Of a stretch of DNA of 64,000 bases, positions 4,422-27,551 are shown piece after piece (position 1 is the first letter of the stretch; every line of letters begins with the position of its first letter). The notes beneath the pieces were generated by a model. It did no database searches. It was not told the origin of the DNA and was given only the letters and a program-made list of their open reading frames with translations. The position numbers and the translations under genes were made by a program. Source of the DNA: a virus (lineage: Duplodnaviria > Caudoviricetes); the IMG/VR virus record IMGVR_UViG_3300049182_000044, positions 64,001-128,000 of that record, one strand, 5' to 3'.

Positions 4422-4692
4422 CATGCTTGTACTTATTGCGCTTGTTATGGCGTCGTGTGTTGCCTCATTCGCCTATGCGAAAGGCGGTGGTGCGCGAGGT
4501 GGAAGTTTCCGTGGGAGCTTCCGCAATTCTCCGAAACCTCCTGCAGCCCCATCGAACGCTCGTCAAGCCTCAGACTCTAGCTCTACTACGTCCTCAAGTA
4601 ACAGCTCGTGGTGGCCAAACTTTTTCTTTTTCGGTAACAGCCGGCGTACCGAGTGTACCGAGGACATTAAACGTGAAGGAGGTTGTCGATGA
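4393..4692 (+). CDS. Small secreted or membrane protein with Gly/Arg-rich and Ser-rich segments
   Basis: N-terminal basic plus hydrophobic signal (MNRRKLAAYSMLVLIALVMASCVASFAYA) followed by KGGGARGGSFRGSFR. Confidence 0.6.
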   Translation: MNRRKLAAYSMLVLIALVMASCVASFAYAKGGGARGGSFRGSFRNSPKPPAAPSNARQASDSSSTTSSSNSSWWPNFFFFGNSRRTECTEDIKREGGCR

Positions 4693-15747: not shown

Positions 15748-15823
15748 GGGGCGTTAACTCAGTTGGTAGAGTAGCGGACTCTTAATCCGTTTGTCGTAAG
15801 TTCGATCCTTACACGCCCTACCA
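15748..15823 (+). tRNA. tRNA-Lys(CTT)
   Basis: 76-nt cloverleaf, GCGGA-CT-CTT-AA-TCCGT anticodon arm, TTCGATC T loop, encoded CCA. Confidence 0.95.
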
Positions 15824-15881
15824 AAGTTTCCATAGTAGTGCAGATGCGCGAAAGCGAGTTCTTACTTCTGCATTACTCACC

Positions 15882-15957
15882 GGGTCGTTAGCTCAGTCGG
15901 TAGAGCAGCGGACTTTTAATCCGTTGGTCGCGTGTTCGAGTCACGCACGGCCTACCA
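15882..15957 (+). tRNA. tRNA-Lys(TTT)
   Basis: 76-nt cloverleaf, GCGGA-CT-TTT-AA-TCCGT, encoded CCA. Confidence 0.95.
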
Positions 15958-16111
15958 AGTTTGTCGTAGTAAAGAGTTGTAACTGCCATGTGGGTGGGTA
16001 CCTGCATGTTGTCGTAAGAATGGCCAAAAAGCCGGACCTCAATTTGTGCGAGTCGAAAGGCTCTCACCAGTGTAGACAGTCCTTACAGGGGATCGCAGTT
16101 AGCTGTTACGT

Positions 16112-16187
16112 GGGGCGTTAGCTCAGTTGGGAGAGCAGCGAACTTTTAATCCGTTGGTCGCTGGTTCAAACCCAGCACGCCCTACCA
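16112..16187 (+). tRNA. tRNA-Lys(TTT), variant with A30:C40 mismatch
   Basis: 76-nt cloverleaf, GCGAA-CT-TTT-AA-TCCGT, TTCAAAC T loop, encoded CCA. Confidence 0.85.
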
Positions 16188-19181: not shown

Positions 19182-19189
19182 TACAGAAT

Positions 19190-19580
19190 TTATGGTTGTG
19201 TGCGTAGCGTAATCTACGCGAGACGTTTGCGTGAAGGCATGGCGGACGGGAGTTCGATTCTCCCCACCTCCACCACCAGCACTTTGAACACCCGGTGATG
19301 GCCGGGAGTTTGACCATGTAGGGTAACGGCCCCATAGCAGCCGCTACAGGACCAGTTGCGATACAACTGCAAAGCGCTGTTGATGGGGGTGACCTGGTTT
19401 CGACGGCGTGAGATAGCAAGAACTACAACTCAGCAGGCGATCGCTGACTCTTCGGAGTGAATCGAAGCAAAAATAGTAAATGCAAACGACTCGCATTTCC
19501 TGCAAGCTGCAAACGCCTAATTAAGCGTTTCACTTCAGGCTAAGTGACTACGGGGTCTGTTGACATAGCGCTACGGCGCG
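19190..19580 (+). ncRNA. ssrA: Circularly permuted (two-piece) tmRNA
   Basis: Acceptor piece ends GGAC-GGGAG-TTCGATT-CTCCC-CACCTCC-A-CCA (19275); coding piece starts GGGGGTG (19385), G3:U70 present; tag GCA AAC GAC...TAA at 19482-19520 = ANDSHFLQAANA; outer boundaries approximate. Confidence 0.9.
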
Positions 19581-19589
19581 CCGTCTTCG

Positions 19590-20035
19590 TGTACGTAGTT
19601 AGTCCGGCCACTCCACCTTTCGCCGATAATGACGCGACTGCGCGTGGGTGTCTTAGTCAGCGCGTAAGCGCACCGAAGCCGGACTACCCAGTTTCAAACC
19701 TCCAAGGTCAGAGAGCACTACACAGTGAGTTCGGTCTAAACTTTAACCATTTAGTCACCGAGAGACGATTTCCGTTATAGCAATCTGGATCGGACAACAG
19801 CCTGTGCAGCCAAAGGAGGGCCCAACGTAAAACGTTCTTCATCGAGCGTTTTACGTTGGTGACGGCAAAGCCGTTAAGGTGCGGACATAGAGCTATTGCA
19901 GCTTCAGCGTGGGTACGAACACTAATCGCATGGAGGAACCCCACCGGCGATGAAGTCGTAGGATGTGAAAGCCCGCTACGCTGTCACCAACATTCTCAAA
20001 TCGCGACCTAAGGTGGTCCCGATCATTCAACTTTA
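19590..20035 (+). ncRNA. Candidate large structured ncRNA, copy 2 (boundaries approximate)
   Basis: TAGTCCGGC/GCCGGACTA helix, 16-bp hairpin CCAACGTAAAACGTTC/GAGCGTTTTACGTTGG, core shared with copy 1. Confidence 0.6.
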
Positions 20036-25303: not shown

Positions 25304-25759
25304 ATGAAACTCAATGTTGATCTCAAACCGAAAGATGAAAAGATGAATACGACTGCTTCCTCCTGTGACCAAGCCGCTGTTCCTGCAGAAGCTCCGGTCA
25401 CTGAGAACACTCCGACTACTGCACCGGCACCTGTAGCTGAGACTGCCGTCAACGTCACCACCGGTGTCGCATGTCTCGATCCAGGCCATGTGTACGAACT
25501 GGGCGGCGGCAACGTAGTCAAGTTCCTCAAGAAGGTCGATGGCACGCTGATTCATCACGGCACCACGAACGAGGAATGCCTGCAGATGTTGATTCATCGC
25601 ACCAAAGAACTCAACGCCAAATTCCCATGCAAGGAAAACGACCAGGCCATCATTCGCATGGAAGAGGCACTGATGTGGTTCAACGAGCGTACTGCGAAAC
25701 GCACTGCGCAAGGTGTTGAAACCCGCTATCAGAACCATGAGGACGTTCAGCACGGATGA
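25304..25759 (+). CDS. Tad1-like nucleotide-signal sponge (anti-defence), with low-complexity N-terminal extension
   Basis: HGTTNEECLQMLIHR...FPCKENDQAIIRMEEALMWFNER..KR matches Tad1 pattern HG...LLEIVRDR...F..RENA.AL.HVEEALMWMN.R. Confidence 0.7.
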   Translation: MKLNVDLKPKDEKMNTTASSCDQAAVPAEAPVTENTPTTAPAPVAETAVNVTTGVACLDPGHVYELGGGNVVKFLKKVDGTLIHHGTTNEECLQMLIHRTKELNAKFPCKENDQAIIRMEEALMWFNERTAKRTAQGVETRYQNHEDVQHG

Positions 25760-25889
25760 TCAAGCCAAGGACGACGAAGACCCATTATGCCCTACTTGTA
25801 GATGGGTGCTGTTCATCTGCATAGGACTGCTGGTTCTTCTTAGCGTCTCTTGGCCGTTCATAGTGCCGTTCTTGAAAACTGTAAAGTAA
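25737..25889 (+). CDS. 50-aa single-TM peptide
   Basis: Not in ORF track; MRTFSTDDQAKDDEDPLCPTCRWVLFICIGLLVLLSVSWPFIVPFLKTVK*. Confidence 0.45.
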   Translation: MRTFSTDDQAKDDEDPLCPTCRWVLFICIGLLVLLSVSWPFIVPFLKTVK

Positions 25890-25908: not shown

Positions 25909-26556
25909 TGAGTCGTGGTGACACGACATTGTGCATCTGCGTAAAATGCGTTGGTAGTCAATATGGACCGGATGAGGCCAAAAGCCGTTGATCCCGATTC
26001 AGGATGTTTGGCGTAACGACGCAACCGAAAGGCGTATAAAACATTAGCCCTAGCCAGTGCGGTACTTAAGTGGACGGCTGCTAGCGCATAATGGATGAAT
26101 GTTATCAAATTCGGCGAAAGCTAAGCTCTCCGGTAGTAACGTTTCCGGGTCACAGGTACCTCAAACGGTCCATACGCTTCGGGCTTGTCCCTTGCGCACA
26201 CCTACCTAAACAGCCACCGAGCAGTGACTGCTGAGTATGCCAACGCCGAGCCAAGCCTAGAACGATAGTCACAGGTAATCCTTCATAGCGACGACGCCTA
26301 AGGCAGTCAAGCGTAGAAGCGACACCACGGTGAATGTCCGATTAGGAAGGTGTAGAGACTGGTAGGTAACCACCGTAACAGCTGCTTTAACTTATGGGCG
26401 TGTCCCAACTCCGAACGCGACGGAGGTGAAGCAGCAGGTGAAGGCACAGTCCGGGCCATCAACGGTATGCGACACTAATCGAGGCCGGCCTTGTAAATGG
26501 GTCGGTGTACTCGAAATAGCTATTACCGCGTATAGGCGGCGAAAGCCGTGGTGGTG
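25909..26556 (+). mobile_element. Group I intron, Azoarcus/IC3-like
   Basis: Core matches Azoarcus intron: TCAAATTCGGCGAAA.CTAAGC, AACGCCGAGCCAAGC, GAAGGTGTAGAGACT, GGTGAAGGCA.AGTCC; P3 GTTATC/GGTAAC; P9.0 GCCATC/GGTGGT; P9 GCGGC-GAAA-GCCGT; omega-G 26556. The 5' splice site (P1 ATCAT/GTGGT) is less certain. Confidence 0.85.
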
Positions 26557-27054
26557 AGAATACGATTCGACTCTTATTTTATAGACATGAAACGCTCAGA
26601 ACTACAAGCCTTACTACGTGAAGAGTGTAATCCCAACATAGTGCTAGCTACGGTTGGCTCTTGCTGGGAGTGCTCTTCACATAGTCGAAACGGTGGATAC
26701 TACTTCATTTATGAATTTTCTTCTAAGAAGAAAGTTCTGTTGCATCGACTAGCCTACAAGTTAGTCAAAGGAAAGATTCCAAAAGGCCACGTGATTCGGC
26801 ATCGTTGCGATAATCGTGGGTGTTTGAAGCCTAGCCATTTGATTAGCGGAACCGTCGGTGACAACAACCGAGACATGGTAGAACGAGGTAGGCAAGCTCG
26901 TGGCGAACGCAACCGCCACGCTAGGCTGACTGAAGCTCAAGCTCGAGAAATAAAGTATTCCAAGGAATCGAACAAGGTACTGCGTGAACGCTTCAACGTG
27001 CACCGCAATCTTGTGACAGGTATCCGTAACGGTACCTACTGGAAACATATTTAA
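26548..27054 (+). CDS. HNH (His-Me finger) homing-type endonuclease with C-terminal HTH; alternative start 26587
   Basis: CWEC, LHRLAYKL..G.IPKG.VIRHRCDNRGCLKPSHL..GT..DNNRDM..RGR, ARLTEAQAREI. Confidence 0.9.
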   Translation: MVVRIRFDSYFIDMKRSELQALLREECNPNIVLATVGSCWECSSHSRNGGYYFIYEFSSKKKVLLHRLAYKLVKGKIPKGHVIRHRCDNRGCLKPSHLISGTVGDNNRDMVERGRQARGERNRHARLTEAQAREIKYSKESNKVLRERFNVHRNLVTGIRNGTYWKHI

Positions 27055-27077: not shown

Positions 27078-27467
27078 ATGAGTGCTATCGCTCTCCTGAA
27101 GCAGCTGCGCGGACTTGTTCCCACAGCAGAACTGCAGGGAAAGATTGACCAAGTTATCGCTGACGAAAACGTGGTCGAAAACGTAGGCCGCCATGAAGTT
27201 GGCAAGATCGTACGCTTTGCTCCTGACACCAGAGCACCTTTGTTCGGAACTGAAGCAAAGGTCATGCGCAATCGCGCAACGAGTAACGGGAAGGTGTTGT
27301 ACGATCTGGCTCTCACCGACGGTGACAGCGAAGAAGGATACTACGAGCGCTATCCGATCATCGGAGTTGATGCATGTTTCGTTCGTTCCCTCGACCCGCG
27401 TGAAGAGCAACTCGGTCAAAACGCAGAAACCGAAGCACGAATTGCAGACATTCGTACTGCAGGATAA
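27078..27467 (+). CDS. Hypothetical protein
   Basis: GAAGGA RBS. Confidence 0.65.
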   Translation: MSAIALLKQLRGLVPTAELQGKIDQVIADENVVENVGRHEVGKIVRFAPDTRAPLFGTEAKVMRNRATSNGKVLYDLALTDGDSEEGYYERYPIIGVDACFVRSLDPREEQLGQNAETEARIADIRTAG

Positions 27468-27551
27468 GTTGTAAAGAACAGGCCGTTAATTCGGCCTGTC
27501 CTCACCTTCAAACTGTAAATGGGTCGTGTAGACCAACCACATAGGTGACCC

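Follow-up and report, generated by a model that had tools for sequence, protein, structure and literature searches.

A tRNA-type group I intron without a tRNA adjoins an HNH endonuclease gene in a jumbo phage, and its splicing is probably no switch for the nuclease

Introduction

To our knowledge, there is one case of a group I ribozyme that lies in a leader and controls expression by splicing, the C. difficile system. There, a c-di-GMP-II aptamer and a group I ribozyme are found together in an mRNA leader and splicing turns translation on (PMC9481103). In collaborative homing the partners are a free-standing endonuclease and an intron that lacks an ORF, as in T7-like phages, a cyanophage and ICP1 (PMC3984707, PMC10448857). 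In T4, a hidden Shine–Dalgarno (SD) sequence serves the true AUG of an endonuclease and is freed by use of a late promoter (PMC2988022). The entry of endonucleases into introns is still argued from few cases (PMC3984707).

The DNA considered here, hereafter the window, is a stretch of 64,000 nt (positions 64,001 to 128,000 of IMG/VR record IMGVR_UViG_3300049182_000044); the source genome is that of a jumbo phage, represented by a 281.6-kb record from a soil metagenome. The window holds a group I intron of the IC3 (tRNA) type that adjoins an HNH endonuclease gene. We compare this locus with the systems above and ask whether splicing could govern expression of the nuclease.

Results

Anatomy and boundaries of the intron

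The features of the locus are collected in Table 1. The intron scores 19 bits against Rfam RF00028, which is below the gathering threshold, and a search at that threshold misses it. All 16 intron helices nevertheless pair, and a P3–P9 core with the guanosine-binding helix P7 is present. Two core patterns, used as queries, led to this IC3 core at 15 phage loci, most of them in tRNA anticodon loops, and ligating the exons of relatives and running ARAGORN on the products gave 22 intact tRNA hosts.

Table 1. Features of the intron–nuclease locus; positions are those of the window.
Feature	Position	Strand	Evidence or remark
Acb2/Tad1-like gene, upstream synteny marker	25304..25759	+	Weak match to Pfam PF24729; orthologs (55-64% identity) lie ahead of the same intron
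Promoter-like ACTGTAAA just before the 5' exon	25878..25885	+	Sense:antisense 28:3 in the genome; putative function
Short 5' exon ending in CAU, 5' splice site after U25908	25886..25908	+	Same CAU/GUG pairing in P1 in all 5 orthologs
IC3 (tRNA-type) group I intron of 650 nt, lying within no tRNA or ORF	25909..26558	+	Rfam, pairing, covariation, tRNA-hosted relatives
Internal guide sequence, UU (P10) and GUG (P1)	25929..25933	+	Invariant in 5 orthologs; every 3' exon starts with AA
Conserved branch inserted in P2, with L2 GAAA hairpin	25938..26036	+	Common to many phage and metagenome IC3 introns; covaries
P9.0, 5' strand	26455..26460	+	Pairs with 26550-26555; 4 of 6 pairs with two-sided changes among orthologs
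P9.1 hairpin, TGTAAAT in loop	26484..26506	+	Weak promoter-like match, in this genome only
P9 hairpin, GAAA loop, holding SD-like AGGCGG	26534..26549	+	26536-26540 pair with 26545-26549; -8.6 kcal/mol; conserved
In-frame GTG GTG GTG over P9 base and P9.0 3' strand, followed by G26558, the terminal G	26548..26558	+	Probably not a start
3' exon start, pairing with 5' exon into a hairpin	26559..26577	+	Ligated exons fold better than shuffles
Free-standing gene for a 155-aa HNH endonuclease, ATG 26587 being the most likely start	26587..27054	+	Pfam, alignment, fold match
129-aa gene, downstream synteny marker	27078..27467	+	Orthologs 41-56% identical in L076, L079, L082 and L085

The boundaries follow from comparison. 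Among tRNA-hosted relatives whose P9.0 is of the GUGGU type, 15 of 16 have their terminal G 3 nt past that motif, which places the 3' splice site after G26558. A terminal G at 26556 is the weaker choice, with which three of the five orthologs would lose P10; GTG 26548 is intronic in either case. The guide (UU then GUG, directly 5' of P2) matches that of the tRNA(CAU) introns in L031 and L036 and thus sets the 5' splice site after U25908, at the junction that these two introns also use. U25895 and U25951 were considered as alternatives, and only U25908 fits the guide position of the tRNA-hosted relatives. The U·G pair at the 5' splice site, P10 and the terminal G after P9.0 are all present, and self-splicing from U25908 to G26558 has most likely been retained.

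The P2 branch consists of an A-rich linker, a 7-bp helix, an internal loop (GUAGUC/GGCGUAA) and the GAAA hairpin, and is strongly conserved and covarying also in L013, L014, L018, L021, L026-L038 and L048-L074. It corresponds to no Rfam family, no Rfam aptamer was found in the region, and its pattern had no match in GTDB genomes.

Exons without a host gene

Ligating the exons yields no tRNA, so the intron does not sit in the anticodon loop of a tRNA gene; nor is there an upstream host ORF, the nearest (50 aa) having already stopped at 25889. That ORF (25737-25889), which carries a hydrophobic stretch, lies between the Acb2-like gene and the intron, has its stop inside the outer exon stem, and is absent in L079, L082 and L085. 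The intron interrupts no gene, and its exons form a predicted, covarying hairpin around the CAU/AA junction. The hairpins vary in sequence among orthologs and fold better than shuffles: the fold of the ligated exons is beaten by 0-3 of 1,000 shuffles in four orthologs and by 40 of 1,000 in L076. The Anabaena IC3 intron reportedly requires its exons to pair in the anticodon stem (Zaug 1993, listed among the references of PMC3984707); by analogy, the exon hairpin may stand in for that stem.

Many other members of the family are also without a tRNA host (L014, L021, L029, L035, L038, L050 and L166), and several tRNA-less members have hardly any sequence ahead of the guide and close with a short 3' tail that they have in common. 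L048 (1-1628) holds orphan introns head to tail, with a terminal G about 12 nt before the next guide. L080 (560-1179) matches the orphan intron of L079 as far as the 5' strand of P7 and then continues as another intron that ends in a tRNA(CAU)-like exon; this switch reflects either misassembly or recombination between orphan and tRNA introns.

Genomic setting

Within this genome ACTGTAAA is intergenic as well as strongly strand-biased, and it is found in the same place in L079, L082 and L085, though it is absent in L076; we take it as a putative phage promoter. The genome has no HNH_3 gene other than the ORF at 26548-27054. The tRNA genes found number three, all for tRNA-Lys; they and a permuted tmRNA lie at 15748-16187 and 19183-19611. 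A blastn search of annotated phages gave no match for the studied region, and IMG/VR searched with the flanking proteins gave no syntenic locus. A DNA sequencing run, possibly of the source sample, showed no variants and no joints and has no bearing on expression. The z-score of the minimum free energy of the whole region is uninformative (-0.11).

A fixed intron and a variable nuclease

L076 shares the order of genes seen in the window (NADAR, Acb2/Tad1-like, intron, HNH). Following the Acb2-like gene led to L079, L082 and L085, the last two being near relatives of each other; all three carry the same intron and downstream gene, together with a 62-63-aa gene and no HNH. The intron is thus found at five of five orthologous loci with DNA (P0195, P0203 and P0206 have no DNA), the nuclease at two of the five, or two of six by gene calls; a further ortholog contig has a 720-nt gap and no HNH. 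An allele lacking both intron and nuclease was not seen among these five to six orthologs, a small sample.

Over the five orthologs, 98% of the cells in the 16 helices are paired, as opposed to 29-43% in slid control structures; because the structure was drawn from the window sequence, the comparison favors it over the slid versions. There are 19 pairs with two-sided changes, a number reached in none of 500 shuffles, and P1 and P10 never vary. The flanking proteins are 32-68% identical between lineages, and yet splice sites, guide, core and exon pairing have been kept. On this comparative evidence, the ribozyme is under selection for what would be a splicing-competent fold across distantly related jumbo phages, and the intron is the fixed and the nuclease the variable part of the locus. 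Trees of the flanking proteins and of the intron are too weak to separate two gains of the HNH gene from losses. Just past the HNH stop in L076, a stretch (4480-4500) resembles the original 3' exon strand, hinting that the HNH gene was inserted within the 3' exon.

The translation start and the splicing switch

The HNH ORF encodes 168 aa from GTG 26548 and 155 aa from ATG 26587. A preliminary description of this DNA held that the GTG start and its upstream AGGCGG lie inside P9/P9.0 and nearly all of the ORF in the 3' exon, that ATG 26587 lacks a clear SD, and that folding or splicing could consequently switch the nuclease off. The structural statements are borne out. AGGCGG (26534-26539) overlaps the 5' strand of P9, and the GTG (26548-26550) runs from the base of P9 into the P9.0 3' strand, whose first nucleotide it includes; of the longest ORF (507 nt), only 11 nt belong to the intron; and the duplex with the anti-SD is valued at +3.6 kcal/mol for ATG 26587 against -5.8 kcal/mol for the GTG. 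The switch built on them fares badly, for three reasons: the frame is closed in L076, relatives start at the ATG, and the GTG would be off in both RNA states.

In L076, the only HNH-bearing ortholog found, in-frame GTG GTG is followed immediately by TGA at the splice site, and a second TGA lies 21 nt before the ATG. Upstream closure of the frame is seen in L039, L043 and L078 as well, and there every start is preceded by an SD of its own. Among relatives whose sequence reaches the N-terminus, the closest five have their start where ATG 26587 lies and a sixth starts two residues further on, all as predicted by gene callers; the 13-aa extension from the GTG occurs in no relative, and relatives at 57% and 54% identity align with residues 1-155 of the ATG form. 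AlphaFold gives low confidence to residues 1-10, which are covered by no alignment rows and were for that reason not counted.

The start-like words themselves are no more than expected by chance, since GUG and GGCGG are conserved helix sequence in relatives that have no ORF: GTG occurs within the last 12 nt of the intron in 15 of 16 ORF-less tRNA-hosted relatives, and GGCGG in all five orthologs, with the full AGGCGG also in the HNH-less L082. In a crude simulation, about 16% of placements gave an open in-frame GTG. As for the ATG, 21-24% of 245 first ATGs in the genome have an equally weak SD, so that its absence is weak evidence against ATG 26587; an SD as weak precedes the conserved start of the NADAR gene (24783).

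Predicted opening energies, which ignore tertiary structure and co-transcriptional folding, are 14-21 kcal/mol at the GUG region and 4.5-5.5 kcal/mol at the AUG region (10-12 when the folding window reaches the exon stem), compared to 4-10 kcal/mol at the starts of nearby genes; for the AUG, splicing is predicted to make no difference. A start in P9/P9.0 would be off in either state, since the precursor would bury it and the spliced message would no longer contain it, which leaves nothing to switch. We conclude that GTG 26548 is probably not a translation start, that the HNH protein is most likely made from ATG 26587, beyond the splice site, and that splicing probably does not switch the gene off. 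Read in this way, neither the start nor the ORF of the endonuclease would lie inside the intron. A fusion turned on by splicing was also considered and rejected: splicing adds only a distant TTG here and no start in the orthologs.

A nuclease clade at the 3' ends of IC3 introns

The ORF encodes an HNH_3 protein with a Pfam match to the His-Cys zinc loop, comprising a His-Me finger with catalytic His/Asn and C-terminal DNA-binding helices; the catalytic and zinc residues are invariant in the alignment of its clade. A sequence search of the PDB gave no match. The best Foldseek matches are I-PpoI and I-HmuI (probability 0.82-0.96; E 0.02-0.05, which is weak; 15-19% identity). The closest relative, at 57% identity and likewise 155 aa, is that of L076.

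Seven HNH proteins form a clade (support 93/91), six of them at loci with DNA. Five of these six adjoin the 3' end of an IC3 intron (the window, L076, L039-L042, L078 and L166), compared to none of 86 distant HNH loci, where five isolated single-word matches to the core were found. The arrangements differ. In the window and L076 the gene lies in the 3' exon of the orphan intron; in L039-L042 the closest clade member is separated by about 180 nt from the intron ahead of it, which sits in an intact tRNA(CAU); and in L078 and L166 the gene follows the P7 end of other IC3 introns and has a P9-type module on either side (P9/P9.0-type, at L078 437-979 and L166 374-910). Depending on which of the alternative 3' splice sites is used, the gene could in the latter two either stay in the exon or be removed; the end of the L166 ORF overlaps the second P9. 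At the sixth locus, L043, an intronless tRNA(CAU) precedes the HNH gene that L039 also has. Nuclease and spacer are identical between L039 (5500-5870) and L043 (700-790), and the upstream tRNA(CAU) genes are different, split in one and intact in the other; the difference is a cassette swap.

Going by these loci, the association of the clade with IC3 intron 3' ends is specific, though not absolute (L043). To the extent that nuclease and intron had been thought to move as one unit, the clade's position at IC3 3' ends agrees, but at the syntenic locus the intron stays and the HNH gene comes and goes, the patchy presence of a free-standing gene. An intron that is fixed beside a nuclease that varies is not the pattern of collaborative homing into a shared intronless target. 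Because exons differ among the clade loci and the intron 3' end is what they share, nuclease-free alleles may carry the putative target at their intron 3' end or spanning it; this is a tentative view, though preferred to an intronless CAU junction.

Discussion

The reading we favor, with good though incomplete confidence, is that of an orphan self-splicing IC3 ribozyme beside which a free-standing HNH gene was inserted later, splicing being neither an on- nor an off-switch. A tRNA(CAU)-type ribozyme would have lost its tRNA and now occupy a small phage operon's leader, where a hairpin between its short exons replaces the anticodon stem. Splicing from U25908 to G26558 would release a 650-nt intron RNA and leave a message with a 5' hairpin. 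The homing-type HNH gene would have entered the 3' exon later, replacing the 62-aa gene, and would be translated from the SD-less, AU-rich ATG 26587 on spliced and unspliced RNA alike. Its clade appears to settle at IC3 intron 3' ends and would most likely spread into nuclease-free intron loci. The boundaries (by comparison), covariation, synteny, the presence and absence of the nuclease and the closed frame of L076 are observed, and from these we infer splicing, start codon, promoter, nuclease activity and target. The good SD 8 nt from the GTG, set against an ATG with none, speaks against this reading.

A possible but doubtful alternative is collaborative homing, in which the HNH enzyme cuts an intronless CAU anticodon junction (UCAUAA), intron and nuclease are copied together, and the locus is the relic of a tRNA(CAU) cassette. 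The ligated junctions of the window, L076 and L039 are UCAU/AA-like, the L039-L042 nuclease does lie behind an intron in an intact tRNA(CAU), and there are precedents in T7-like phages and a cyanophage (PMC10448857, PMC3984707). The locus, however, shows no intronless allele, three or four orthologs have the intron without the HNH, L043 keeps an identical nuclease beside an uninterrupted UCAUAA tRNA, and the introns of L166 and L078 have other exons. About as tentative is the proposal that the ribozyme has been reused in phage leaders, for guanosine-dependent RNA processing or for release of a 650-nt RNA with a ligand-binding P2 branch, with an HNH clade specialised on IC3 3' ends and L078 and L166 as intermediates on the way into the intron.

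Control of the T4 kind, by a late promoter (TGTAAAT 26492, in P9.1) that yields a short transcript unable to splice, is unlikely. The core hexamer is present, and T4 intron endonucleases use such promoters (PMC2988022). A stretch of 13 nt is common to the TGTAAA sites at 26492 and 27514, which lie 1 kb from each other; this ranks with the longest matches of 3,081 pairs, and the site at 27514 is a strong one. Against this, the site at 26492 ranks only 28 of 30 by position weight matrix, lacks the A-rich upstream part, is absent in L076 and is not conserved in the orthologs, and the short transcript would open neither start (8.9 and 18.9 kcal/mol). Still less probable is that the HNH gene is a barely expressed passenger and the whole unit a slowly decaying relic. 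An ATG without SD, the missing tRNA host and the patchy HNH presence would suit it, but the ribozyme helices covary, the splice signals are invariant across deep divergence, and the clade shows no variation in the His-Me catalytic and zinc residues. Most improbable of all is translation from GTG 26548 through the P9 SD, with folding hiding the start and splicing removing it: it has the best SD of the region at 8-nt spacing, an open frame and the precedent of hairpins that hide ribosome-binding sites of T4 endonucleases (PMC2988022), but it runs into the closed frame of L076, helix words shared with ORF-less relatives, a compensated P9.0 pair that explains G26550, relatives without the 13-aa extension, a start buried or absent in both RNA states and the roughly 16% chance of an open GTG.

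A splicing off-switch for a nuclease would have been new, and it does not hold up. What the locus offers in its place is a tRNA-type ribozyme that appears to be selected with no gene to repair, which points to an undescribed job for group I ribozymes, and a nuclease clade whose genes lie outside introns of a single kind, behind them and apparently within them, like snapshots of endonuclease entry into introns. Our search of the literature found no description of a selected tRNA-less ribozyme or of a nuclease clade at intron 3' ends.

Among known systems, the locus resembles tRNA-hosted IC3 introns in core sequence and helices, the 3-bp P1 on an exon end CAU, P10 on AA and paired exons; its phage relatives in L031 and L036 use the same junction inside an intact tRNA(CAU). 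Unlike them, it is 650 nt long with large inserts and the conserved P2 branch, has an exon hairpin in place of a tRNA body, and sits in a phage operon leader. As in collaborative homing pairs, a free-standing nuclease adjoins an ORF-less intron, but here no host gene and no intronless allele are seen, the intron is fixed and the nuclease variable, and the target is conjectural. With the T4 endonucleases I-TevI/II/III and SegB/MobE (PMC2988022) it shares an endonuclease gene beside or overlapping ribozyme structure, an SD-like word in a hairpin and a promoter-like word upstream, whereas relatives do not keep the hidden SD and GUG as a start and the ORF belongs to an exon. Like the C. difficile system (PMC9481103), it places a group I ribozyme in a leader and not in a gene; unlike it, the locus has no known aptamer and no predicted change in accessibility at the AUG. 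The protein matches the His-Me finger enzymes I-PpoI and I-HmuI in fold and in the Pfam His-Cys zinc loop, with the low identity given above. The locus is no tRNA intron, for it has no tRNA, and no intron-encoded nuclease, the start most likely lying in the exon; as far as its sequence can tell, it would work like a tRNA-type IC3 intron accompanied by a free-standing homing endonuclease.
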